From contig CAZGYG010000005.1 in the NCBI GenBank assembly GCA_964530335.1, positions 2,255 through 66,254 of the forward strand: 64,000 nucleotides of DNA, given 5' to 3'. Shown one piece after another: positions 8,076 through 62,049 of this stretch. Numbering within the stretch: position 1 is the first letter of the stretch; the number at the start of each line of letters is the position of its first letter. The stretch is from an uncultured Rhodospirillaceae bacterium. GTDB taxonomy: Bacteria; Pseudomonadota; Alphaproteobacteria; SP197. Position numbers and translations under genes: made by a program. The notes beneath the pieces are model-generated. The model was not told the DNA's origin and did no database searches. It worked only from the letters and a program-made list of their open reading frames with translations.

Positions 8076-9817
8076 CGCATTTCCTCCGCCGGCGCGACGC
8101 CCATGACGCCGAGCCCGCCCGCGATCACCGCGCGCACGGCGCGCACCAGCCCGAGCCGCGCCTTGGTCAGCGCCACGTCGCCGGGAACCAGGAAGCGCAA
8201 ACCGGGGTCGTCGTTGCCCCGGTGCCAATGGGCATGGAACATCCCGGCCAGGTCGTAGAGATAGAACGCGAGCCGGTGCGGTTCGTGCGCCTCGGCCGCG
8301 GTCTCGAGGGTACGCGGCCACAGGGCGATCTGCTTGATGAGCGCGAGCTCGCCCAGGTCGCCCAGCCGCGCGAAATCGAGCGTTGTCGCGTCGTCGTCCG
8401 CCACGATGTCCGTCGCGTTGCGCAGCACCGAGCAGCAGCGCGCGTGGGCGTACTGGACATAGAACACCGGGTTGTCCTTCGACTGCTCGCGCACCTTCGC
8501 CAGGTCGAAGTCGAGGTGCATGTCGTTGCGCCGCGTCAGCATGACGAAGCGCACGACGTCCTTGCCGACGGCGTCGACGACGTCGCGCAACGCCACGAAG
8601 CTGCCGGCGCGCTTGGACATTCGCACCGGCTGGCCCTGGTCGAGCAGGTTGACGAGCTGGCAGATTTTGACATCGAGCGCGACCCGCCGGTCGGACAGCG
8701 CCGCGACCGCCGCCTGCATGCGCTTGACGTAGCCGCCGTGGTCGGCACCCCAGACGTCGATCAGCACCTCGAAGCCGCGGCGTAGCTTGTCGTTGTGGTA
8801 CGCGATGTCCCCGGCGAAATAGGTCCACGAGCCGTCCGATTTGCGCACCGGCCGGTCGACGTCGTCGCCGAACGCGGTGGAGCGGAACAGCGTCTGCTCG
8901 CGCGGCTCCCAGTCGTCGGGCTTGGAGCCCTTCGGCGGCTCCAGGACGCCTCGATAGATCAGCCCCTTGGCCTCCAGCGCCCCGAGCGCCGCCTCGACCC
9001 CGCCCGCCGCCACGCCGGCGCGCTCGGAACTGAATACCTCCTGGCGCACGCCGAGCAGCTCGAGGTCATCGCGGATCAGGGCCATCATGGCCGCGCTGGC
9101 GGTATCGCGCAGCGGCGCCAGCCATTGCGTCTCGACGACGCCGAGCCAACGATCGCCGTCGCGGGCGCGCAGGTCCTCGGCCACCGGAACCAGGTAATCG
9201 CCAGGGTAAAGCCCTTCCGGCATGGGGCCGAGACGTTCGCCGCACGCCTCGCGGTAGCGCCAGTGGAGCGCCCGGCCGAGCTGGTCGATCTGGGCGCCGG
9301 CATCGTTGATGTAAAACTCTCGGACGACCTTGTAACCAGCTGATTCCAGGAGGTTAGACAGGACATCGCCGACGACCGCGCCGCGCGCGTGGCCGACGTG
9401 CAGCGGCCCGGTCGGATTGGCCGAGACGTATTCGACGTTGACCCGGCGCCCGCGCCCGATATCGCCGCGCCCGTAGTCCGTGCCCGCCGCAAGGACCTCG
9501 GAAAGCCGGCGGTGCCAGAACCCGGCGTCGAAGCGCAGATTGATGAAGCCGGGTCCGGCGGCTTCGGCCGCGCTGACGCCCCCGATGCGGGCGAGCTCCG
9601 GGACCAGCAGCTCGGCGATCGCGCGCGGCGGCTTTCCCGCCCCCTTGGCGAGCACCAGGGCGGCGTTGGTCGCCATGTCGCCGTGAGCAGGGTCGCGGGG
9701 GGCATCGAGGGTCACGGCCTCCAATGGCAGCCCCTGGGGCAATCGGCCGTCGGCCGCCAGCCGCCCGATGGCCGCCACGACCTCGTCGCGCAGGGCCCGG
9801 AAGTAGTCGTGGCTCAC
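8072..9817 (-). CDS. argS: Arginine--tRNA ligase
   Basis: [20 protein letters not shown] (HIGH), [26 protein letters not shown]; GTG start overlaps the dgt stop. Confidence 0.97.
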
Positions 9818-10977
9818 GCGGCGGCCCTGCCCGGCAGCAGCCGGCGGTGTTCGGCGTGGGCGAAATTGTCGGTCATGCCGGCGATGTAGTCGGCGATGCT
9901 GCGCGGCAACCCCTCGCCGCCGCCGTGCGCCGCGCGCCACGCCTCGGGAAGGAGTGCCGGATCGGCCAGGAACCAGGCGAAAAGATCGCTCACGACGGCC
10001 TTCGCCTGGTCCTGCATGGCGACGACCTCCGGGTGCCGGTACATGCGGGCGTAGAGGAAGGCCTTGAGCTCGGCGTTCGCCCTGGTCACCTCGGCGGAGA
10101 ACGCCACCAAAGCCTCGCCGAACCCACGAACCTCGGCGGCGGACATGGGTGGCCGCGCCGCGACCTTGGCCCGCGTGGCGGCGAGCACGTCGCCGACCAT
10201 GGCGTCGATCATGCGCCGCACCGCCTCGTGGACCGCGCGCTGGATCTCGAGGCCTGGCCAGCGCCGCGCGACCTCGGCGAAAGCGACACCGGCCAAGGGC
10301 ACTGCGGCGAGCGCCGGGATCGTCAGCAGGCCGGAGCGGATGCCATCGTCGATGTCATGGCAGTGATAAGCGATATCGTCCGCCAAACCAGCCACTTGCG
10401 CCTCGGCGCTCGGGTAGAGGTCGAGCTCGAGGTCCTGGGGATACGCGGCGATCGACGCCGGCACCGCGCCACGGCAGGGCCCGTTGTGCTTGACCAGCCC
10501 TTCGAGCGCCTCCCACGTCAGGTTGAGGCCGTCGAACTCGGCATAACGGGCCTCGAGCGCCGTGACGATGCGGAAAGCCTGTTCGTTGTGGTCGAAACCG
10601 CCGTAGGGCGCCATGGCGGCGTCGAGCGCGTGCTCGCCGGCGTGGCCGAACGGCGGATGTCCCAGGTCGTGGGCCAGGGCGACCGCCTCGACCAGGTCCT
10701 CGTCCAGGCCCAGAGCGCGGCCGATCGAACGGGCGATCTGCGCCACTTCCAGGCTGTGGGTCAGCCGGGTGCGGTAGTGGTCGCCGTCCGGCTGGACGAA
10801 CACCTGGGTCTTGTGCTTCAGGCGGCGGAACGCCGTGGAATGGACGATGCGGTCGCGATCGCGCTGAAACGGGGTGCGGGTCGCGCTCGGGGTTTCGGGG
10901 TGAAGCCGGCCCCGGCTATACTCCGGGCGGCACGCGAACGCCGCATGGCCATGCCCGGCTGGCGGCTCGTGCGTCAT
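9814..10977 (-). CDS. dgt: Deoxyguanosinetriphosphate triphosphohydrolase
   Basis: [50 protein letters not shown]. Confidence 0.95.
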
Positions 10978-11110
10978 GGCCCAAGCTACTCTCGGGCCCG
11001 GGCAGGGCGCAACGGTACGGACTTTCCGCCGCCGGCGGGAAATTGACAAATCGCCGCGCAACCCTAGATTCTATAAGATGGATTCGGAACGGCGACGACA
11101 GGACCAAGGG

Positions 11111-11458
11111 ATGAGCACGGAAGCGACGCCCGCCCCGATCTCGATGACCGAGAACGCGGCCAAGCGAATCGTCGATCTGGTGTCCCGCGAGGGCAGCCCG
11201 GAAACGCGCCTGCGCATCCTGGTCGAAGGCGGCGGCTGTTCCGGTTTCCAATACATCTTCAAGCTCGACGCCGCGCGCGATCCGACCGATCTGTTGATCG
11301 AGCGGGGCGGCGCCGAGGTCGTGGTCGACGCCATATCGCTGCCCATGATGTTCGGGCTCGAGCTCGACTGGGTCGAAGCCCTCGAAGGCGCCCACTTCGC
11401 GGTCAAGAATCCGAACGCCACGGCGTCGTGCAGCTGCGGCAATTCGTTCGCGATTTAA
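11111..11458 (+). CDS. erpA: Iron-sulfur cluster insertion protein ErpA (A-type carrier)
   Basis: VEGGGCSGFQY and NPNATASCSCGNSF; divergent from dgt as is usual in Alphaproteobacteria. Confidence 0.92.
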   Translation: MSTEATPAPISMTENAAKRIVDLVSREGSPETRLRILVEGGGCSGFQYIFKLDAARDPTDLLIERGGAEVVVDAISLPMMFGLELDWVEALEGAHFAVKNPNATASCSCGNSFAI

Positions 11459-28460: not shown

Positions 28461-29138
28461 TCAATTGCCGTCCGAGTGTTCGCTACTATGGTTGCTGTGC
28501 CGTCTGGATTCGATGCGCGGATCGTCGACGCCGTGATCGCGCGGCGCGACGACGCCTTGGGTCACCGTGCCGTCGGGAGCGAACGACGCCGAATCCCCCG
28601 TCATCAAATGGGTCTCCTGGCCGCTCGCCGCTACCATCGCCATCGCGCCCTGCACGACCGTGACGGTCACGGCGCCCAACTCGCTGATCACGATGTAGAG
28701 CGTGGTGCCGCGCACGCCGATGACCCCGACCGGGGTCGTCAGCGTGTAGGACTCCGATGCGAGCGCGCCGCTGACGAACAGGAACGCGCCGAGCGCCAGG
28801 TCGACCGCGAATTCGCCCTTGCCGGAGTTGGGGTCGTAGACGTAGCGGTCGAGCGTGGCCTGGCTCGACCCGCCCAGGCGAAGCTCGGTGCCGTCGAGGA
28901 ACGTGAGATGCAGCGCGCCGCGCGCGACGGTCTCGACGAATTCGTCGGCGATGACGGTTGCGGCCTGAAACAGGTCGGTGCGGGTCGCCCCGGACCGCGT
29001 ACCATAGGCCCACACGGAGACATGCTGCACCGTGCCGATCTGGGCGCAGGCTGGCCGGGCCGCGCCCAGGGCCGCCGCCACGGCGACGGCGATCACCAGG
29101 ACGATCGAATGGCGGGAAAGCGGACAATCTCTGATCAT
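28461..29138 (-). CDS. Exported FecR-domain protein
   Basis: Signal peptide (ACA-Q), LTFLDGTELRLG, TTPVGVIGVRGT, VTVVQG; start uncertain (29138 or 29213). Confidence 0.8.
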   Translation of the reverse strand: MIRDCPLSRHSIVLVIAVAVAAALGAARPACAQIGTVQHVSVWAYGTRSGATRTDLFQAATVIADEFVETVARGALHLTFLDGTELRLGGSSQATLDRYVYDPNSGKGEFAVDLALGAFLFVSGALASESYTLTTPVGVIGVRGTTLYIVISELGAVTVTVVQGAMAMVAASGQETHLMTGDSASFAPDGTVTQGVVAPRDHGVDDPRIESRRHSNHSSEHSDGN

Positions 29139-29290: not shown

Positions 29291-29366
29291 TCCCCGGTAG
29301 CTCAGCAGGTAGAGCAAGCGGCTGTTAACCGCTGGGTCGCTGGTTCGAATCCGGCCCGGGGAGCCA
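29291..29366 (+). tRNA. tRNA-Asn (GTT)
   Basis: TCCCCGG/CCGGGGA acceptor stem, anticodon loop CTGTTAA, GGTTCGAATCC, encoded CCA. Confidence 0.97.
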
Positions 29367-53623: not shown

Positions 53624-54787
53624 ATGAAGCCCGATACCCTGCTCGTCCACGCCGGCCGTGATCCGCGCCGCCAGGGCGGTTGCGTCAACCCGCCCGTGCA
53701 CCACGCCTCGACCATAGTCTATCCGACCGTGGCGGAGCTGCTCGACAGCGCGCGCCATCCGTTCGATGGCGTCGTCTACGGCAGCTATGGCGTGCCCATC
53801 ACGTTCGCCCTCGAGCAGGCACTCGCGGCGCTCGACGGCGGCCACCGCGCGGTCGCGGTGCGCTCGGGCAAGGCGGCCGTCGTAACGGCGCTGCTCGCGC
53901 TCGTGCGCGGCGGCGACCACGTTCTGGTCACCGACAGCGCCTATGGCCCGACTCGCAACTTCTGCGCCGGCATGCTGGCCGGGCTCGGCGTTGCCACGAC
54001 GTTCTACGATCCCGGCATCGGCGCCGGCATCGCCGATCTCATCCGGCCCGAGACCAAGGCGGTGTTCGTCGAATCCCCGGGATCGCTGACCTTCGAGGTG
54101 CAGGACGTTCCGGCGATCGCCGCCGCCGCGCACGCCCGGGGCGCGGTCGTGGTCATGGACAACACCTGGGCCACGCCGCTCCACTTCCGGCCGTTCGACC
54201 ACGGCGTCGACGTGGCCCTGCAGGCCGCGACCAAATACATCGGCGGTCACTCCGACGTCATGGTCGGCGTTGTGACCACCACGGAACCCTTGCACGAGAG
54301 CGTGCGCAAGGCGGCGGTGACGCTCGGCGGCTGCCCGGGGCCGGACGACTGCTACCTGGCGCTGCGCGGGCTGCGCACGCTTGGAGTGCGTCTGGCCCGG
54401 CACGAGCGGACCGGGCTGGCGCTCGCCCGTTGGCTCGCGGCGCGGCCCGAGGTGCGCCGCGTTCTCCACCCGGCGCTGCCCGACGACCCGGGCCACGCGC
54501 TGTGGCGGCGCGATTTCTCGGGGTCCGGCGGGCTGTTCGGCATCGTGCTCGCGCCCTGCTCGCCCCAGGCCGTCGCCGCCATGCTCGAGGGCATGCGCCA
54601 CTTCGCCCTCGGCTATTCATGGGGCGGCTACGAAAGCCTGCTGATTCCGACGTTCCCGGAGAAAAATCGTACGGTGGTTCCGTGGAACCCGGGCGGGCCG
54701 ACGCTCCGGCTCTACGCCGGGCTCGAGGACCCGGACGACCTGATCGCCGATCTCGACGCGGGATTCGCGCGCCTCTCCGCCGTTTAG
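53624..54787 (+). CDS. metC: Cystathionine beta-lyase
   Basis: VNPPVHHAST, ESPGSLTFEVQD, DNTWATP, ATKYIGGHSD, GYSWGGYESL; divergent from aapJ. Confidence 0.92.
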   Translation: MKPDTLLVHAGRDPRRQGGCVNPPVHHASTIVYPTVAELLDSARHPFDGVVYGSYGVPITFALEQALAALDGGHRAVAVRSGKAAVVTALLALVRGGDHVLVTDSAYGPTRNFCAGMLAGLGVATTFYDPGIGAGIADLIRPETKAVFVESPGSLTFEVQDVPAIAAAAHARGAVVVMDNTWATPLHFRPFDHGVDVALQAATKYIGGHSDVMVGVVTTTEPLHESVRKAAVTLGGCPGPDDCYLALRGLRTLGVRLARHERTGLALARWLAARPEVRRVLHPALPDDPGHALWRRDFSGSGGLFGIVLAPCSPQAVAAMLEGMRHFALGYSWGGYESLLIPTFPEKNRTVVPWNPGGPTLRLYAGLEDPDDLIADLDAGFARLSAV

Positions 54788-54842
54788 CCGTTGCGCGGCG
54801 CGGGCCGATTGTATCGTGTGCGTGCCGGCCTATAATCGCGCC

Positions 54843-55589
54843 ATGAGCGACCGCGCACCGACCCGTGCCTCGAGCATCGCCTGCGTCGTCCTGGCGGTGG
54901 TCGTTGCCCTCGCCTTGGTCGCCGCTCCCGCCCGCGCCGAACAAAGGCAGGAGTTCGCCCAGGGCTACGAGCTCTACAAATCCGAGCTATATCGTGGCGC
55001 GGTTGCCCTGTTCGAGCGCGGCCTCGCGATCGAGCCCGACAACGGGCTGGCCCATTTTTACGCCGCCGAGTCCTACTACAAGCTCGGTGAGCTGCAACCC
55101 GCGCTTGACCATTACCGCGCGGCCGCCAGCTTCCTGCCGCCCGGCACCGAGGCGACCAAGACGAGCAACATGATCGTCGCCATCGAGGCGGAGTTCGGCG
55201 CGGCGGGCACGGCCGGCGAACTGCCCGAGCCGTCGGCCACCGCGACGACCGAGGAACCCGCCGCGACGACGACCAGCGGCCCCGCCGATTGGAGTGCCCT
55301 GACCGCCGACACTGGCGCGCTCAGCCAGGCCATATCGGACTATTACGAGGTGAACCAGCCTGCCCCCGAGGCGAAGGACAGCTCGATCATCAACGTGTTC
55401 TCGATCGCGCTCGACAGCACTTCGCGCGATCAGGCCGTCGTCAAGTTCCGCTGCGAGGTCAAGGCCTCGCACGGCAAGACCGGTATCTTCCGCGCCCGGG
55501 TCACGCTGCTGGCCGAGGGCGATTCGTACCGGGTAATCGAGTTTAACAAGGACGAACAGTTCGACATCGTCAAGGGGTTCGCCTACTAG
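54843..55589 (+). CDS. Exported TPR-containing protein
   Basis: Signal peptide (ARA-E), TPR helices (AVALFERGLAIEPDNGLAHFYAAESY), T/E/P/A linker and an unassigned C-terminal alpha/beta domain. Confidence 0.78.
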   Translation: MSDRAPTRASSIACVVLAVVVALALVAAPARAEQRQEFAQGYELYKSELYRGAVALFERGLAIEPDNGLAHFYAAESYYKLGELQPALDHYRAAASFLPPGTEATKTSNMIVAIEAEFGAAGTAGELPEPSATATTEEPAATTTSGPADWSALTADTGALSQAISDYYEVNQPAPEAKDSSIINVFSIALDSTSRDQAVVKFRCEVKASHGKTGIFRARVTLLAEGDSYRVIEFNKDEQFDIVKGFAY

Positions 55590-55746
55590 CAGGGTGCTGA
55601 AAAACCCCTGACGGTGTCATTGCGAGGAGGCCGAAGGCCGACGCGGCAATCCAGAATCGCGCGCAATTCCGCCATTGCCCTGGATCGCCACGCCGCCTGC
55701 GGCGGCTCGCGATGACGATGATGGGGGCTTTTCCGCAGCCTGCTAG
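55586..55746. mobile_element. MITE-like element with CTAG at both ends, terminal inverted repeats and an internal REP-like palindrome
   Basis: Left end CTAG-CAGGGTGCTGAAAAACCCC; right end (reverse complement) CTAG-CAGGCTGCGGAAAAGCCCC; inner gtcattgcgag...ccag/ctgg...ctcgcgatgac. Confidence 0.65.
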
Positions 55747-55763
55747 AACCCTCGCACCTGGCC

Positions 55764-56903
55764 CTATTCGTGCACCTGGATCGTCAGTTCCGCTCGCGCC
55801 TCGGGCGCGGCCGCGGCGATCCAGCCCACCACGGTCTCCAGCGGCTCGTTGAACGGGCGCGTGATGTCGGCGTCCGTGACCTCGACGGGCAGGCGCGCGC
55901 TCGGGTCCGCCGACCAGGCGAAGCACAACACGCGCTCGGTGCCCGGCGGTCCGCCCATGGTTAGCGTGAGGCCATCGCTCGGGCTGGGGATGCCATGGGT
56001 GGCGAACCCGGCGAGCCGTGGTCCGCCCGTGAAGCGGTTGGGGAACAGGGTCACGACGACGCCGTCGACCTGCTCGTAGACACACCGGGCGTAGGCGTCG
56101 CGGTTGGTCGCCAGGCGAAGTTCCAGCGCCTCGCCGACGGCAAGCTCGGGCGTTGGCCCGCGCACGGATTCGAGCGTCAACGAGAGTTCCGCCGGCGGCT
56201 CGACCATGCGCACGAGCAGCGCGCGCGCTTGCGCGCCGCAGCCCTGTTCGCCGAGCCAGCGCAACAGGTGCGCCGCGGTCGGGAAGATCGCGGGCACCCG
56301 GTGGACGATGATGTGCGCCAGGGACGCGCCGCCGTCGGGCACGAAGGCGTACTCGGCACCGTCGACGATCGGAATGTCATCGGGCCACGGCACGGCGCTG
56401 GCCGGCTCGGACCACGCGATAGGCACCTCGGCGCGCGAGGCCAGCGCGCGAAACCGGCCGGCGGCCGCCTTGTCGCGCCACAGGCCATCCGGGGCGGCGT
56501 CGACGCAGCGATCCCCCGATCCCGCCATGTCGATCGTCCACAGCCCATCGGGCCCATCCTCGCCGCCGCGCACGGCGCCGAACGCCTGGGTATCGACGTC
56601 GCCCTCGCCCATCATGGCGGCGAGGCCCGAGACCAGATCGCCCGTGCCGGCGGCCGCGCCGGGCACGGCGCCCTGGTACGGCCCGTCGAGGCGCGTCATC
56701 GAGCCGTCCTCGGCCAGCAGGGTCACCGCCGCGCCAGCCGCCACGGTCACGTCGCCGCCGCCCGCGACGACGGTGCCCGGCACATAGGCCGGGTCGGTCG
56801 ATTCGAGCACCAGCAGGTCGCCGGCCCGGGCCACGCCCGTGCAGATGAGGGCGACGGCGGCCACGACCGCACCCAGGGTGACGATGGCGTGGCGTGGGTT
56901 CAT
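55764..56903 (-). CDS. Exported protein with a C-terminal DUF4384-like domain
   Basis: Signal peptide (ARA-G); C-terminal VGEALEL...RDAY.....DG.V..LFPN...IP...PPGTE pattern; start overlaps the cyclase stop (ATGA). Confidence 0.75.
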   Translation of the reverse strand: MNPRHAIVTLGAVVAAVALICTGVARAGDLLVLESTDPAYVPGTVVAGGGDVTVAAGAAVTLLAEDGSMTRLDGPYQGAVPGAAAGTGDLVSGLAAMMGEGDVDTQAFGAVRGGEDGPDGLWTIDMAGSGDRCVDAAPDGLWRDKAAAGRFRALASRAEVPIAWSEPASAVPWPDDIPIVDGAEYAFVPDGGASLAHIIVHRVPAIFPTAAHLLRWLGEQGCGAQARALLVRMVEPPAELSLTLESVRGPTPELAVGEALELRLATNRDAYARCVYEQVDGVVVTLFPNRFTGGPRLAGFATHGIPSPSDGLTLTMGGPPGTERVLCFAWSADPSARLPVEVTDADITRPFNEPLETVVGWIAAAAPEARAELTIQVHE

Positions 56904-58885
56904 TTCTCCTCCAGCACGATCCGCACCCCCTTATCGCCCCGCCGCAGGCGTTTCAGGTGCAGCGCGACGACGGCATCGTCGGGCGCGGCGGCGGCGATGC
57001 GTTCGAACCGGGCGAGCGCGTCCGCTTCCCCGTGGCGCAGCGCCTGGTAGGCCGCGCGGTAATCGTCCAGGTCCGGCCGGCTTTCGATCGGCTCGAACAC
57101 CGCGATCGCCTCCTTGCGGCCCTTGACCACGACCTCGGCCACCGGCCGGAACGCCATTCCGGGGCAGTCTTCGGCCACCGCCCCGCTGACGCAAATCCGC
57201 GTGCCCAGCGCCTTGTTCGCCCCTTCGAGCCGCGATGCCGTGTTCACCGTATCCCCAAGCGCGGTGTAATTGAAGCGGTCGCGGCCGCCGAAGTTGCCGA
57301 CCGTGGCCACGCCGCCATGGACGCCGATGCGGGTGATGCCAAGGTTGACCCCCCTGGGCCTGATCTCGACGCGGAACCGCTCGGCGAAGGCGTCCATGGC
57401 CAAGGCGCACGCCACCGCGTTCCGGGCGTGGTCCTCCTGGCTGATTGGCGCCCCGAAGATCGCCACCACGGCATCGCCGATCAGCTTGTCGATGGTGCCG
57501 TTGTGGGCCACGACGACGCCGCACATGCCGTCGAAGTACTCGTTGAGCAGCCGGCCGAGTTCCTCCGCGTCCATGCCCTCGGACAGGGAGGTGAACCCGG
57601 CGATGTCGCTGAACAGGAACGTCACCTCGCGGCGCTCCCCGCCCAGCACGAGCCGATCCGGGTCGGCCTCGAGCTGGGCCACCAGCGCCGGCGAGACGAA
57701 ACGTGAGAAGGCCTGACGGATGAAGCGCTTCTTGCGGCGCGCGCGCCGGCCGACGAAGCCGACGCCGCCGGCGAAGGTTCCCAGGTAGCCGAGCAGCGGC
57801 GCGACCAGCGGCACGTCGGGCCCGCCGAGCCAGGTCGCACCGACACCCGCGCCGACCAGCAGGGCGATCACGCCGACGCCCGACGCCAGCCGCGCCGGCA
57901 GCGGCAGGCTGACGAGCGCCAGGCCGAGCCCCGCCGCGACCGCGACCAGGGCCACGGCGAACCGGCCAGCGAAGCCGAGCTCGGCCACGCTCCGCCCGTC
58001 GATGATCTGCGCCAGCATGTGGGCGTGCACGACCACGCCGGGGATCGCCCCCGCCGTGGCGCCGTAGACGATGGCCTTGGGCACCCGGATGCGGTCGGTG
58101 TCGCGGAAGTCGGCGCCGATCAGCGCGATGCGCCCGGCGATCCAGTCCTTCGGCAACAGGCCGACCGCCTCGATCGGAAAGATGCGGAACGGCGATTCGC
58201 CGACGGCGCCGCCGACCCGATAATCGAGCCGCGGCCGGCCCTCGGGCACCGCGTGGCCGAGCGCCGAGGCGAGCGCGGCGGCGAAGCCCAGGCGCGTGTC
58301 GCCGGCCACGTCGAGCGTCGTGGTCAGCCAACGCACCGTGCCGTCCTTGCCGTCGCGGATCACGTTGGGCCAACCACGCCCGAGGTTTTCGGTGAATGCG
58401 CGCAGGTACTGGGCGCCTTCCGTGCTGAGCCCGTGGCTCGCGTCGGCATAGGCGACGACCACGGGGCCGGGGAACCCGAGCAGCGCACGGCGCAGGCGCT
58501 CGTCCTTGTCCGGCTCGGTCGGGCGATCGATCAGGACGTCGAGCCCCACGGCGCGCGCACCGGACCGCCCAAGCGCCTCGACCGCGTCCGCCAGCAGGCC
58601 GCGGTCGATCGGCGACAGGTAAGGCAGGCCGGCGAGGGAGGTATCGCGGATGGCGATGATGACCACGTTATCGTCGAACGCCTCGCCGGTACCCGAAGCC
58701 GCCGGCCGCGCCAGGACCGTGGTGCGGATGTCCGCGTACCAGGTCTCGACCTGGCGCACGAACGGCACCCAGCCCTCGGTCGCCAGTACCGTCACCGCCA
58801 GCCCCAGCGCGCCGATCAGTACGGCCTCGGCCAGGTCCCGCACGTGCCGGCGTTTAATTTTTCGGGCGGGGGAAGCTGGGGGCAC
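56900..58885 (-). CDS. CHASE2-domain class III adenylyl cyclase
   Basis: CHASE2 motifs (VVIIAI, ARAVGLDVL, PGVVVHA) plus TM helices; catalytic FSDIAGFT, DKLIGDA, YTALGDTVNTASRLEG; start approximate. Confidence 0.92.
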   Translation of the reverse strand: MPPASPARKIKRRHVRDLAEAVLIGALGLAVTVLATEGWVPFVRQVETWYADIRTTVLARPAASGTGEAFDDNVVIIAIRDTSLAGLPYLSPIDRGLLADAVEALGRSGARAVGLDVLIDRPTEPDKDERLRRALLGFPGPVVVAYADASHGLSTEGAQYLRAFTENLGRGWPNVIRDGKDGTVRWLTTTLDVAGDTRLGFAAALASALGHAVPEGRPRLDYRVGGAVGESPFRIFPIEAVGLLPKDWIAGRIALIGADFRDTDRIRVPKAIVYGATAGAIPGVVVHAHMLAQIIDGRSVAELGFAGRFAVALVAVAAGLGLALVSLPLPARLASGVGVIALLVGAGVGATWLGGPDVPLVAPLLGYLGTFAGGVGFVGRRARRKKRFIRQAFSRFVSPALVAQLEADPDRLVLGGERREVTFLFSDIAGFTSLSEGMDAEELGRLLNEYFDGMCGVVVAHNGTIDKLIGDAVVAIFGAPISQEDHARNAVACALAMDAFAERFRVEIRPRGVNLGITRIGVHGGVATVGNFGGRDRFNYTALGDTVNTASRLEGANKALGTRICVSGAVAEDCPGMAFRPVAEVVVKGRKEAIAVFEPIESRPDLDDYRAAYQALRHGEADALARFERIAAAAPDDAVVALHLKRLRRGDKGVRIVLEEK

Positions 58886-59001
58886 GGGACAGCGATGTTG
58901 TGACGCGGGGCACTATGCACCGGGCCAGGGGCGGCGGCTACCGACCGCCCAGGGGCAATGCCGGGGGCGACGAGGAGGCGGATTTGCGCTATATTGCGAT
59001 A

Positions 59002-60921
59002 ATGCGGCTCAGCCGTCTTGCACCGATTCTCGCGCTCGCCCGGCCACTGGCCGCCCTGGCCGTTCTTGCCTTGGCCACGGTGGTCGCGCCCGCCCTGCCC
59101 GCGGGGGCGGCCACGCGCGGCCTCAGCGTCGAGGTCCAGGGGGCTGATGGCGCGTCGGAAGGGGTGGTCGAGCTCTATTCGGCCAGCTATGCCCTGGTCA
59201 TCGGCATCGACGAATACACCAACGGCTGGCCTCGCCTGCGCAACGCCATCAAGGACGCCGAGCTCGTCGCCGACAACCTGCGCGAGCTCGGCTTCGACGT
59301 GACCATCGCGACCGACCTGGATTCGGAAGGCTTGCGGCGCACGTTCAAGGAGTTCCTCGTGCGCAAGGGGGCCGATCCGGAGGCGCGGCTGTTCGTCTGG
59401 TACGCCGGGCACGGCCATTCCGAGAATGGCGAGGGGTTCCTCGTGCCCACCGACGCGCCGACGCCGGACAACCCCGATTTCGCGCTCTACAGCCTGCCGC
59501 TGCGCGATATCGGCACCCTGGTCCGCCTGGCGCGGTCCAAGCACGTGCTCGGCGTCTTCGACAGTTGCTTCGCCGGGACGATCTTCGAGGCGCGCGGCGG
59601 CGTGCCGCCGCCGGCGATAACCCGGGCGGCGCTGCTGCCGGTGCGTCAGTTCCTGTCGTCGGGCGATGCCGATCAGACCGTGGCGGACAACGGCAGTTTC
59701 CGCGAGCTGTTCATCCGCGCGATCCGGGGCGAGGACGGCGCCGACATGAACGACGACGGCTACGTCACGGGCAGCGAGCTCGGCGTATTCCTGTCCGACC
59801 GCGTCACCAACCTGACCCGCGGCGCGCAGACGCCGCGCTACGGCAAGCTGCTCGATGTCAATTACGATCGCGGGGACTTCGTGTTCGCGGTGCCGAGGAC
59901 GGCGCCGGCGCCCGAGCCGCAGGTTACGACGACGCCGAGCGCCGCCCCGAACTCGACCGACGCCGCCTACGAGTTGGCCTTCTGGGACGCCATCAAGAAC
60001 AGCTCCAGTGTCGGGGACTACGAGGCCTATCTGGAAGCCTACCCGGAGGGCCGGTTTGCTCCGCTCGCCCGCGCCCGCGTCCAGATCTTGCAAGGCAGTG
60101 CAAAGCAGCCCGAGACGCCTGCGCCAGAGCCCGAGGTCCCCGAGACGGTCGTGGCAACGGCCGCGCCGGCCGAGGTCCCCGAGGCCGAGCCAGCGGCTGA
60201 ACCCGCTGTCGAACCCGCGACGGCCGCCCTGGAGCCCGCGGCCGAGGTGCCGGCCGAAGCGGAGCCCGAACCGGCGCCGGACATCGAGGCCATGGACGAC
60301 GACTTCACCGTGGTGCGCAGCGCCAACGTGCGCGTGGCACCCAGCACCTCCGCCAAGTTCGTCGCCAAGCTGGCCAAGGGTGCGGTCGTCCACGTCGTCG
60401 GCCGGGTGTCGGGACAACCGTGGTACGCCATCGCGCTCGAGGGCGACGCGACCGGTTACATCCACGAAAGCCTGGTCAGTCCGAGCCTTGCGCCGGCCGA
60501 AGCGCCCGCGGCGGCGACCGAAACCGTGCCGGAATCGGCGCCGGAACTCGAGGCCATGGACCAGGACTTCACCGTGGTGCGCGGCGCGAACGTGCGCTCG
60601 GCACCGGACACCGCGGCCAAGCGCGTCGCCAAGTTGGACCAGGGCGCGGTCGTCCACGTCGTCGGCCGGGTGTTGGGGCAGCCGTGGTACGCCATCGCGC
60701 TCGAAGGCGACGTCACCGGTTACATCCACGAAAGCCTGGTCAGCCCGGCCGCCGAACAGGCGACGACCTTGCCCGAACTGCCGCTCGAGGGGTCCGAGGC
60801 CGTTCCCGCCGAGGGTGGCGCCGAGGCCGAGTTCTCGGCCGACAACCCGTTCGCCGCGCCGTCGTCGACGACTGAGACGCCGACCTACAGTTCCGACAAC
60901 CCCTTCGCCACTTCGCCGTGA
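59002..60921 (+). CDS. Exported caspase-like (peptidase C14) protease with tandem SH3b domains
   Basis: Signal peptide; ALVIGIDEY, L.NA..DA, YAGHG (His), FDSCFAG (Cys); AYLEAYPEGRF motif; two ANVR..P...G..V.V.G.V....WY.I...GYI repeats. Confidence 0.88.
   Translation: MRLSRLAPILALARPLAALAVLALATVVAPALPAGAATRGLSVEVQGADGASEGVVELYSASYALVIGIDEYTNGWPRLRNAIKDAELVADNLRELGFDVTIATDLDSEGLRRTFKEFLVRKGADPEARLFVWYAGHGHSENGEGFLVPTDAPTPDNPDFALYSLPLRDIGTLVRLARSKHVLGVFDSCFAGTIFEARGGVPPPAITRAALLPVRQFLSSGDADQTVADNGSFRELFIRAIRGEDGADMNDDGYVTGSELGVFLSDRVTNLTRGAQTPRYGKLLDVNYDRGDFVFAVPRTAPAPEPQVTTTPSAAPNSTDAAYELAFWDAIKNSSSVGDYEAYLEAYPEGRFAPLARARVQILQGSAKQPETPAPEPEVPETVVATAAPAEVPEAEPAAEPAVEPATAALEPAAEVPAEAEPEPAPDIEAMDDDFTVVRSANVRVAPSTSAKFVAKLAKGAVVHVVGRVSGQPWYAIALEGDATGYIHESLVSPSLAPAEAPAAATETVPESAPELEAMDQDFTVVRGANVRSAPDTAAKRVAKLDQGAVVHVVGRVLGQPWYAIALEGDVTGYIHESLVSPAAEQATTLPELPLEGSEAVPAEGGAEAEFSADNPFAAPSSTTETPTYSSDNPFATSP
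60284..60747 (+). repeat. Intragenic direct repeat of about 200 bp (SH3b domain duplication)
   Basis: 60284-60483 and 60548-60747 are highly similar; the 264-nt offset keeps them in frame. Confidence 0.9.
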
Positions 60922-60977
60922 CAGGCTGCTGAAAACTCGCGATGACGGCATTGATGGCTTATTCAGCGCGCCCCTAG
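60922..60977. mobile_element. Short deleted MITE-like element related to 55586-55746
   Basis: Begins CAGGCTGCTGAAAA, retains ctcgcgatgac and ends ttattcagcgcgcccCTAG. Confidence 0.5.
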
Positions 60978-60999
60978 GCTCGACGTCCCGCCCATCGGC

Positions 61000-62049
61000 A
61001 TGGTCATCACGGAGACGTCGCTCGAAGCTTTCGTTGTCGCGATGTTCCGCGCGGTCGGCTGCGCCGGCGTCGAGGCCGCGACGATCGCCCGCCACCTGGT
61101 CGCCGCGAACCTCATGGGCCACGATTCCCACGGCGTCGGGCTAATCGTGGAATACGTGCGCTCGATCCGCGCGGACCGTTTCCAGATCGGCCGGCACGCC
61201 CAGGTCGTCGTCGATGGCGGCGCCATCCTGGTCATCGACGGCGGGCGCGGCGCCGGCCAGGTGGTGGGCATCGAGGCCATGGACCTGGGCATCGCGCGCG
61301 CCCGCCAGCACGGCACGGCGATCGTCGGCCTGCGCCGCAGCCACCACCTAGGGCGGATCGGCGCCTACGCCGAGCACTGCGCCGCCGCCGGCATGGTCTC
61401 GCTCCACGCGGTCAACGTCATCGGGCACCGGCCCTTCGTCGCGCCGTTCGGCGGGCGCGACGCACGCATCGGCACCAATCCGCTGTGCATTGCCGTGCCG
61501 CGCCCCGACGACCCGCCCCTCGTGCTTGACATGGCGACCAGCCAGATCGCCTACGGCAAGCTCCGGGTCGCGCTCAACGAGGGGCGGCGCGCGCCGCCCG
61601 GCGCGATCATCGACGGCGCCGGAAACCCGACCGACGACCCCGCCGTCATGGTGCCGGACGTGCAGGGCGCGCTGCTGGGGTTCGGCGGCCACAAGGGCGC
61701 CGGGCTCGGCCTGGTGTGCGACATCCTCGCCGGCGCGCTGACGCTCGGCGGCACCAACCACGCGGACGCCTTCGACGACGACATGATCATCAACAACATG
61801 TTCTCGATCATCGTCGACCCGGGCGCGCTGGGCGACGCCCGCGCGATCGCCGCCGAGGTCGAAAAGGTGATCGCCTGGGTCAAGGCCTCGCCGCCCGCCC
61901 CCGGGGTCGCCGAGGTTCTGATCGCCGGAGAGCCCGAGCGGCGCACCGCGGCCGCGCGCCGGGCCTCGGGCATCCCGATCGACGAGCGGACCTGGCAAGG
62001 GCTGACGGAGCTGGCCGGCTCGCTCGGCGTCGCCGTCCCCGCCGGCTGA
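61000..62049 (+). CDS. Ldh_2 family (malate/L-lactate/ureidoglycolate; HcxB/YbiC-like) dehydrogenase
   Basis: GHDSHG, SHHLGRIG, GTNP, LDMATS, GGHKG, GEPE. Confidence 0.9.
   Translation: MVITETSLEAFVVAMFRAVGCAGVEAATIARHLVAANLMGHDSHGVGLIVEYVRSIRADRFQIGRHAQVVVDGGAILVIDGGRGAGQVVGIEAMDLGIARARQHGTAIVGLRRSHHLGRIGAYAEHCAAAGMVSLHAVNVIGHRPFVAPFGGRDARIGTNPLCIAVPRPDDPPLVLDMATSQIAYGKLRVALNEGRRAPPGAIIDGAGNPTDDPAVMVPDVQGALLGFGGHKGAGLGLVCDILAGALTLGGTNHADAFDDDMIINNMFSIIVDPGALGDARAIAAEVEKVIAWVKASPPAPGVAEVLIAGEPERRTAAARRASGIPIDERTWQGLTELAGSLGVAVPAG

Follow-up and report, generated by a model that had tools for sequence, protein, structure and literature searches.

Receptor cyclases with extracytoplasmic accessory proteins are known, the closest described systems to the one treated here being the CHASE2 class III cyclases of Sinorhizobium meliloti and a four-gene cluster of the Campylobacterota. 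We analyzed a related cluster at 54843-60921 of a 64,000-nucleotide stretch of DNA from an uncultured Rhodospirillaceae bacterium (contig CAZGYG010000005.1; the whole stretch is called the window below). Its four genes encode a CHASE2 adenylyl cyclase, a partner protein with a signal-peptide-like N-terminus, a very probably exported caspase homologue and a TPR protein. The genes for the cyclase, the partner and the caspase are a recurrent set, linked far beyond chance. What is new relative to the known systems is an undescribed protein family, which forms the N-terminal domain (N-dom) of the partner, and a plausible but unproven proteolytic switch.

The S. meliloti cyclases CyaD1, CyaD2 and CyaK, with NsrA, Clr, SMc02177 and SMc02178 (PMC5498481, PMC13001267), are likewise alphaproteobacterial CHASE2 class III cyclases, and they respond to a signal of protein nature (PMC13001267). 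The genes beside cyaD1 carry Clr boxes and are induced by cyclic AMP (cAMP); smc02177 encodes a FecR domain and smc02178 a periplasmic protein (PMC5498481). The cluster in the window resembles this arrangement in having genes for exported proteins beside the cyclase, although in S. meliloti a Crp-family regulator binds nearby palindromes and here we have a candidate site only. It differs in that the S. meliloti neighbor has a FecR domain, whereas N-dom gave no FecR signal. The S. meliloti strains have been reported to be without metacaspases (PMC3501461).

In the Campylobacterota, a CHASE2 adenylate cyclase, a cAMP phosphodiesterase, a FecR-domain protein and a TPR protein are encoded in a cluster that was proposed, from bioinformatics alone, to constitute one pathway (PMC9239204). 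Both clusters combine a CHASE2 cyclase with extracytoplasmic accessory genes that include one for a TPR protein, but the TPR protein is the only accessory component of that cluster present in the window: no phosphodiesterase was found among the scanned neighbors and no FecR domain in the four proteins. The window has N-dom and the caspase instead, neither of which is mentioned for the Campylobacterota cluster in the portions of that paper used here (PMC9239204). In the 'BiofilmReg' operon of Burkholderia, which encodes a response regulator, a periplasmic LysM-FecR protein, a histidine kinase with CHASE2 and a DUF4136 protein (PMC5192318), a CHASE2 receptor is likewise accompanied by a secreted accessory protein, in that case a wall-binding one. 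The operon differs in its histidine-kinase output, in its partner, which has LysM and FecR domains, and in having no protease.

In cyanobacteria the same families occur fused and not as neighbors, in a Trichodesmium metacaspase-CHASE2 protein (PMC3501461) and in orthocaspases that are on record with DUF4384 as a fused accessory domain (PMC7475262). These fusions give independent support for a functional connection among the families. In the Trichodesmium fusion the caspase is predicted to be cytoplasmic, at the output of CHASE2, and there is no cyclase, whereas in the window the caspase is very probably exported and would lie on the sensor side. A first-pass annotation, made from the sequence of the window alone, had drawn a parallel with cyanobacterial CHASE2/DUF928/CHAT neighborhoods. 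The parallel found no support, as neither DUF928 nor CHAT was matched in the four proteins or the scanned neighbors (the cyanobacterial loci themselves were not examined).

Among the papers listed by a full-text literature search there was no module of caspase, secreted partner and CHASE2 cyclase and no description of N-dom. The signals recognized by CHASE2 have been called unknown (PMC5192318), and exported caspase homologues have been described as common in the Alphaproteobacteria, without an assigned role (PMC3501461). The three-gene unit links the question of the CHASE2 signal with that of the role of exported caspases, and both become simple experiments. New in this analysis are the separation of N-dom from DUF4384, the invariant arginine and cysteine pair of N-dom, its limitation to a single subclass of CHASE2, the scattered distribution of the caspase over the N-dom tree and a lead on sites resembling those of the cAMP receptor protein (CRP).

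Linkage of the cyclase, partner and caspase genes

The four genes were delimited from open reading frame (ORF) calls and their translations, in a region of about 70% G+C:

56900-58885, minus strand: CHASE2 cyclase, 661 residues; first transmembrane segment (TM1), CHASE2, hydrophobic block, class III domain and tail
55764-56903, minus strand: partner protein, 379 residues; signal peptide, N-dom (about residues 28-235) and DUF4384 (Pfam residues 254-329)
59002-60921, plus strand: caspase, 639 residues; the longest ORF begins at 58900
54843-55589, plus strand: TPR protein, 248 residues from the ATG at 54843; the longest ORF begins with GTG at 54816

This layout agrees with the first-pass annotation. 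Each of the four proteins was matched by Pfam to the domains that had been named for it; NCBIfam gave only sub-threshold domain matches for the TPR protein, the cyclase and the caspase. The predicted coupling of cyclase and partner was found as an ATGA at 56900-56903, in which the stop codon of the cyclase overlaps the start codon of the partner, an arrangement of translational coupling. The divergent spacer between cyclase and caspase, estimated at about 115 bp, measures 116 bp (58886-59001). The source genome, of 3.08 Mb, has three Peptidase_C14 genes, one DUF4384 gene and two CHASE2 genes, and with so few of each, the chance of adjacency is well under 1%.

We searched 401 evenly drawn alphaproteobacterial genomes with a profile of N-dom and found the domain in 40. 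Flanks of up to 10 kb were taken for all places matched and for loci among 40 relatives, which gave 50 N-dom loci besides the window (two of them at contig ends), and were annotated with hidden Markov models (HMMs) built from the window proteins and iterated on the loci. A CHASE2 cyclase gene lies less than 1 kb from the N-dom gene in 36 of the 50, mostly in the same direction and with 4-bp overlaps or gaps of less than 110 bp. In locus L047 the caspase gene stands between the N-dom and cyclase genes, and in L011 the cyclase is a fragment at the end of the contig. A caspase gene is present in the flank of 13 of the 50 loci and adjacent in 11, and no caspase was found in these flanks at more than 2 kb from the genes of the system. 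The same-genus locus L008 has all four genes in the arrangement of the window, with 49-62% identity.

The linkage extends beyond the class. In a sample of 401 genomes from the phylum, N-dom was present in 32, of which 21 are outside the Alphaproteobacteria, and 20 loci were chosen for annotation. A CHASE2 gene lies within about 2 kb in 12 of these 20; three of the 12 are CHASE2 hybrid histidine kinases, indicating that N-dom follows the sensor and not the cyclase output. The flanks of nine of the 20 contain a caspase gene, which in six cases is within 2 kb of an N-dom gene included in the tree described below. Overall, a caspase gene lies within 2 kb of 19 of the 69 N-dom genes, in 14 coded genera and in the window's own locus, 15 groups in all. 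The first-pass annotation had named a failure of the genes to co-occur in other genomes as what would count against it, and when the comparison was run the genes were seen to co-occur.

Five other genomes with a locus caspase have only one to three C14 genes each, six of the eight C14 genes being at N-dom loci, and three of these genomes have no C14 gene besides the locus caspase. N-dom stands beside 5 of the 17 CHASE2 genes of these five genomes and pairs with one CHASE2 subclass only. In a FastTree phylogeny of N-dom, the caspase label required 15 changes, compared with 16.8 +/- 1.3 for shuffled labels, and 73 of 500 shuffles needed 15 or fewer (a quick and short tree, so that the figures are rough). 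The label is thus scattered over the tree and does not form a single inherited block, which means, as a rough statement, that pairing with a caspase arose or disappeared on many occasions.

Where an N-dom gene has no CHASE2 neighbor, the adjoining genes are unrelated and encode an NADH dehydrogenase subunit, YdbH-like, EamA, arginase and GNAT proteins, with the exception of one HAMP hybrid kinase. This HAMP hybrid histidine kinase gene follows the N-dom gene (L077:6932-9682), and the first 330 or so residues of its product match no family; this stretch might represent a diverged sensor working with the same partner.

Domains of the partner, the receptor cyclase and the caspase

The partner protein begins with a hydrophobic segment that ends in Ala-x-Ala and is signal-peptide-like by hydropathy. 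Its further features are:

56199-56822, minus strand: N-dom, partner residues 28-235, about 210 residues; beta-rich, with four helices
55917-56144, minus strand: DUF4384 (PF14326), residues 254-329; Pfam E = 1e-15, 57.9 bits against a cut-off of 27
56568-56570, minus strand: codon of Arg112, in the motif G-A-V-R-G; Arg in 69 of 69 N-dom sequences
56505-56507, minus strand: codon of Cys133; Cys in 69 of 69 N-dom sequences
56238-56240, minus strand: codon of Cys222; Cys in 68 of 69 N-dom sequences

N-dom is an undescribed protein family without a counterpart in Pfam, in NCBIfam or among PDB folds. Partner residues 1-235 had no Pfam match and no NCBIfam match, and six stand-alone N-dom proteins gave no Pfam family even at E <= 1. 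A Foldseek comparison of N-dom with the PDB returned 0 matches at E <= 0.001, and the nearest Atlas clusters are labeled 'hypothetical protein'. Two possible hidden identities were considered and rejected. For FecR, hhalign gave a probability of 1.6%, Pfam FecR matched neither the partner nor the six stand-alone members, a genome-wide search with FecR (PF04773) gave no match in the partner gene, and there was no FecR structure among the Foldseek matches. For DUF4384, the hhalign probability was 0.4%. A tblastn search with N-dom against 72,556 plasmid records produced one match only, to an unannotated record of another genus.

The family is large. A profile built from six close partner homologues was searched against 1.84 billion representative proteins and gave 2671 matches at E <= 0.001, while the stricter limit of E <= 1e-10 was passed by 1025 protein clusters, counts that apply to a profile spanning both N-dom and DUF4384. 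The best 150 matches were mostly proteins of about 235 residues that aligned to residues 1-230 only, and about a quarter of them were proteins of 370-400 residues with both N-dom and DUF4384. An entry of its own in Pfam would be warranted, and the family might be used as a marker of this subclass of CHASE2 receptors. One genus outside the Alphaproteobacteria has N-dom genes duplicated in tandem (L100:9235-10742, also G488:C99:31525-32984). The first-pass annotation had described the partner as an exported protein of the DUF4384 type. The DUF4384 domain and the signal-peptide-like N-terminus are both present, but the part that tracks CHASE2 is N-dom, which occurs without DUF4384 in 41 of the 50 alphaproteobacterial loci.

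AlphaFold2 models of the partner were of high predicted local distance difference test score (pLDDT), with a mean of 91.9, and 89.7 in the model used to inspect the loop at residues 110-114. This loop is the only segment of the latter model with pLDDT below 50, and it contains Arg112, a candidate scissile or contact residue. Cys133 and Cys222 are invariant in two other partner alignments as well and probably form a disulfide, as expected for a periplasmic protein.

The cyclase consists of TM1 (about residues 17-37), a periplasmic CHASE2 domain (about 38-300), a hydrophobic block (about 302-378), the catalytic domain (419-594) and a tail of about 60 residues. Two of these regions were matched by Pfam:

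57986-58804, minus strand: CHASE2 (PF05226), Pfam residues 28-300; E = 2e-23, 83.9 bits against a cut-off of 26.3
57104-57631, minus strand: class III catalytic domain (PF00211), residues 419-594; E = 6e-23, 81.9 bits against a cut-off of 21.9

Hydropathy analysis placed Arg/Lys-rich stretches at the cytoplasmic flanks of the hydrophobic segments, and the CHASE2 domain is predicted to face the periplasm. Within CHASE2, P92, R95, D116, D128, R185, G257, D264 and G283 are invariant in 35 locus-linked homologues. The catalytic set is D427, K467, D471, T541, N548 and R552 (codons checked), of which D427, D471, N548 and R552 are invariant, and K467 nearly so, in the 35 locus-linked cyclases. It aligns with the phytochrome-cyclase fusion 6FHT and with the catalytic domain of Pseudomonas aeruginosa CyaB (PDB 3R5G; E = 3e-31 over residues 416-606), in which the metal Asp, Lys, Thr, Asn and Arg are in the same positions; K467 and T541 fall on the Lys and Thr of CyaB. 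In class III cyclases this Lys/Thr pair confers specificity for ATP. The membrane sensor of CyaB is MASE2, not CHASE2. The alignment and the conservation bear out the claim, made on first inspection, of an intact class III catalytic set including the ATP-specifying Lys/Thr, and the enzyme is a class III adenylyl cyclase predicted to make cAMP.

The second CHASE2 cyclase of the source genome has neither an N-dom nor a caspase neighbor. It is a protein of 830 residues (L090 = G000:C16:5000-24900, gene 8839-11331) encoded among genes for a type I secretion ABC protein, HlyD and outer-membrane efflux, with two cyclase-TPR genes nearby. The genome has 27 class III cyclase-domain matches compared with three Crp-type helix-turn-helix (HTH) matches in its 3.08 Mb, an unusually dense cAMP-generating repertoire for its size.

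The caspase is composed of a signal peptide, a C14 domain of the p20 type, a helical motif of about 45 residues, linkers rich in Pro, Ala and Glu, and two SH3b domains:

59188-59589, plus strand: Peptidase_C14, residues 63-196; E = 8e-17, 62.2 bits against a cut-off of 21.4
59410-59412, plus strand: codon CAC of the catalytic His137, in AGHGH, as read from the sequence
59566-59568, plus strand: codon TGC of the catalytic Cys189, in DSCFAG, as read from the sequence
59947-60222, plus strand: region with the conserved helical motif AAYELAFWDAIKNSSSVGDYEAYLEAYPEGRFAPLARARVQIL; E = 1e-35 in the window with a locally built HMM
60319-60744, plus strand: two SH3b (SH3_3) domains, residues 440-493 and about 514-581; E = 1e-22, of near-identical sequence

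The codons at 59410 and 59566 and the hydrophobic segment at the N-terminus, which ends in Ala-x-Ala, confirm the initial description of a signal-peptide-bearing C14 protease with an intact His/Cys dyad. Among the 14 locus-linked caspases of the class-level set, G-H-G and D-x-C are kept in all 14, and a signal-peptide-like segment precedes the domain in 11, and on inspection also in L010; it was not seen in L076 or L082. The caspase is very probably exported.

A locally built caspase HMM covers residues 62-295. The closest solved relatives by sequence are the paracaspase domains of MALT1 (for instance PDB 3V4O; residues 62-159, E = 4e-8), which share the clan CD signature at the catalytic His (YAGHG). 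MALT1 differs in being eukaryotic, cytoplasmic and activated by a scaffold, and the short alignment leaves out the region around the Cys. The linked caspases vary in their accessory domains, with SH3_3 in five, FGE-sulfatase in three, WD40 in two and Sel1 in one, and in the loci of other classes that were scanned the caspase occurs with DUF4347 and cadherin or with PG_binding_1. In non-alphaproteobacterial loci the caspase can be the C-terminal domain of proteins of 1082-2375 residues (L099:2832-9434, L102:2410-9537, L106:612-7571, L094:3094-6342); the two of these giant forms that were scanned, in L094 and L099, begin with DUF4347, to which cadherin and Big_9 repeats are added in L099. Neither of the two further caspase genes of the source genome is near a cyclase. 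One of them (594 residues, with Sel1 and the same helical motif; L092 = G000:C2:59000-78900) follows genes for a Lon-like protease and a Usp-domain protein and lies about 3 kb before a Crp-type regulator gene.

The DUF4384 domain of the partner is an immunoglobulin (Ig)-like beta sandwich, for which fold matches were to generic Ig-like domains only. Nine of the 50 alphaproteobacterial loci have N-dom and DUF4384 in one protein, and the window brings the number to 10. Six of these nine (7/10 with the window) have a caspase neighbor, compared with 7 of the 41 loci without DUF4384, and in the other three fused loci the caspase-type helical motif is on the partner itself. DUF4384 is thus an add-on that goes with the presence of a caspase.

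The helical motif (FW..IK.S....DY..YL..YP.G.F), to which Pfam assigned no family, comes directly after the caspase domain in six of the linked proteases, those of L008, L009, L061, L076, L083 and the window. In the caspase-less loci L063:9183-11090, L066:7321-9222 and L067:683-2461 it occurs at the N-terminus of the partner (E of about 1e-28), where it sits after a transmembrane anchor and before a long coiled coil of Ala, Glu and Lys. Four loci encode an extra protein of about 510 residues with a C-terminal DUF4384 (L010:9810-11327, L061:4973-6502, L069:5878-7467 and L083:11682-13241), of which two have PG_binding_1 and one a weak match to CsgG. These extra proteins may be a further component of the module. 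The source genome is without one, its single DUF4384 gene being that of the partner.

Proposed mechanism and competing explanations

The reading that we propose, and to which we give about even weight, is that the locus is a recurrent extracytoplasmic sensing module comprising a CHASE2 receptor, an N-dom partner and, in about a quarter of the loci, an exported caspase, with cleavage of the partner setting the output. From the gene linkage, domain content, intact catalytic residues and export signals described above, we infer the binding, the flow of information, the cleavage and its site, and the feedback. The first-pass annotation had proposed that the caspase senses envelope state or a partner protein and processes itself or the DUF4384 protein, with the product switching the cyclase, and these steps are hypothetical as well. 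The periplasmic CHASE2 domain would control the cytoplasmic output, here cAMP from the class III cyclase, and the secreted partner would, through N-dom, bind CHASE2 or present a signal to it. A complex prediction for CHASE2 (38-300) with the mature partner (28-379) scored 0.00 in both runs, which were made without controls and carry no weight either way. The SH3b pair could anchor the caspase at the peptidoglycan, as suggested by the domain type, and DUF4384 could be the docking site for the protease. The wall-held caspase would then cut the partner, most plausibly after Arg112, or a protein captured by the partner. C14 orthocaspases have been stated to cut after basic residues (PMC6426788). 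The processed partner would alter the state of CHASE2 and, with it, the synthesis of cAMP. A Crp-type regulator, of which the source genome encodes three with an HTH domain, might feed back on the divergent promoter through a TGTGA-N6-GCACT site:

58899-58914, no strand assigned: CRP-like palindrome TGTGACGCGGGGCACT in the divergent spacer; two mismatches to TGTGA-N6-TCACA

This palindrome is a candidate cAMP receptor protein site, with its center 96 bp before the caspase ATG. Only two other sites in the 64-kb window, at 29358 and 35580, have two or fewer mismatches. Among the 14 caspase genes, sites of this quality are found 42-96 bp upstream of the ORF start in the window, L047 and L059, and one overlaps the start of the longest ORF in L062. 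The window and the flanks, 905 kb together, contain 28 sites with no more than one mismatch. Of the 108 system genes, 13 (in 11 loci) have a site of this kind in the 250 bp before the gene, compared with 4 of 469 other predicted genes in the same flanks, in a count that was made after the site had been seen, with a simple consensus and crude gene calls, and with related genomes included. At two or fewer mismatches the enrichment is weaker (19/108 against 20/469), and the window's own site has two. The enrichment is a lead and not a result; it suggests feedback by cAMP.

Several points weigh against our reading, beginning with the limits on the site count just given and with the position of the palindrome, which begins only 14 bp from the annotated GTG of the cyclase. 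Most N-dom genes (50 of 69) have no nearby caspase, so that the caspase cannot be essential to the function of the partner, and a neighboring CHASE2 gene is lacking for about 10 of the 50 N-dom genes from the Alphaproteobacteria. L009 and L061 encode an N-dom-DUF4384 protein and a caspase without a cyclase, from which the partner, and not the cyclase, looks like the hub. Arg112 is equally invariant where the caspase is absent, and it may therefore be a contact residue and not the site of cleavage. The Pfam C14 match covers profile positions 3-131 of 233, so that it does not reveal a p10-like part. The calls of export were made from hydropathy and conservation only. The loci, moreover, were selected through N-dom, and related genomes among them are not independent.

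A more far-reaching form of the proposal, which we consider unlikely, is a bacterial protease-activated receptor, in which the wall-anchored caspase would dock through DUF4384 and cut the partner after its loop arginine, the cut partner would be the long-sought activating ligand of this CHASE2 subclass, and extracellular proteolysis would be converted directly to cAMP or, with the kinases, to a phosphorelay. If true, the system would be a counterpart in logic to Spaetzle/Toll or to the thrombin receptors, and exported bacterial caspases would have a role in signaling and not in cell death.

The main competing explanation is that the caspase, and perhaps the partner, are instead outputs of the system, as has been proposed for S. 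meliloti. CHASE2 would then sense an unrelated signal, and cAMP with a Crp/Clr regulator would induce genes for exported proteins that act on the envelope or the surroundings. We think this rather improbable. The CRP-like site in the divergent spacer and the enrichment of such sites upstream of the system genes are what this explanation would predict, and in S. meliloti, smc02177 and smc02178 are activated by Clr and cAMP and are dispensable for perception of the plant signal (PMC5498481). However, the window's site has two mismatches to the published Clr box HGTYHCNNNNGRWACW, the same number as to the consensus for CRP. CHASE2 histidine kinases, the output of which is not cAMP, are also found with N-dom and caspase genes. 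The usual translational coupling of N-dom to the receptor fits a subunit or co-receptor better than it fits a member of a regulon. Feedback control is, in addition, compatible with a role for these proteins in input.

It is distinctly improbable, in our estimate, that the partner is a factor for assembly, stability or localization of the receptor and that the caspase is a wall protease with a job of its own, such as turning over envelope proteins or attacking competitors or prey, and shares only its regulation or its transfer with the sensor. Separate jobs would explain why the caspases carry wall and surface modules (SH3b, PG_binding_1 and Sel1, with cadherin and Big in the giant forms), why some loci have extra CsgG-like/PG_binding_1/DUF4384 proteins and a gene of the OmpA family, and why 50 of the 69 N-dom loci are without a caspase. 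They leave the repeated independent pairing, in 14 coded genera and with caspases of varied architecture, hard to explain without a shared function. The association of DUF4384 on the partner with the presence of a caspase also argues for such a function, as does the finding that the locus caspase is the sole C14 gene in three of five genomes.

That all four genes are neighbors by chance is barely credible: conservation of the TPR gene in the genus only, a mobile repeat between that gene and the operon, and unrelated flanking genes (for a pyridoxal phosphate (PLP) enzyme and an Ldh_2 dehydrogenase) would fit it, but with one to three caspases per genome of 3-5 Mb, less than 1% would lie within 2 kb of a given operon, against the 19 of 69 observed. 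Chance is contradicted for the cyclase, the partner and the caspase; for the TPR gene it is possible.

The TPR gene, the MITE-like repeat and flanking sequence

The TPR protein has a signal-peptide-like N-terminus ending in ARA/EQ and a TPR_2 match (E = 9e-8). Its repeats cover about residues 45-105 when numbered on the longer ORF; a C-terminal domain without a family match comes after them. The first-pass annotation had an exported TPR protein converging on the cluster. The gene, its TPR_2 domain and the signal-peptide-like N-terminus are as stated, but the linkage is kept in the genus only: an orthologue in the same convergent position was found in the same-genus locus L008 alone, with 49% identity, and the other TPR matches were generic multi-TPR proteins. 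We have therefore not counted the TPR gene as a member of the module, and its membership is doubtful.

Beyond the cluster, the genes on either side encode, by Pfam, a PLP enzyme of Cys/Met metabolism and the Ldh_2 dehydrogenase, both unrelated to it. An Rfam scan of 54000-61500 gave a single chance-level match far under threshold. Elsewhere in the window, a FecR-domain match lies at 28644-28937 on the minus strand (G000:C5:30898-31191), in a frame of 273 residues that is 28 kb from the cyclase and adjoins no CHASE2 gene. Contigs from two sequencing runs presumed to be of RNA are 90-95% alike to parts of the locus; being contigs, they carry no information on transcription.

The TPR and partner genes are separated by a repeat resembling a miniature inverted-repeat transposable element (MITE):

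55586-55746, no strand assigned: MITE-like repeat, 161 bp, with terminal inverted repeats of 41 nucleotides, between the TPR and partner genes

Searching the source genome for this repeat gave 57 match rows, with 40 of 121 first-look candidates scored; they reduce to about 40 distinct places when opposite-strand rows and pieces of one place are discounted. The repeat is not part of the system. In a same-genus relative the TPR and partner genes are 4 bp apart, and in a relative's contig from a metagenome the sequence passes from 55587 directly to 55753, the repeat being absent.

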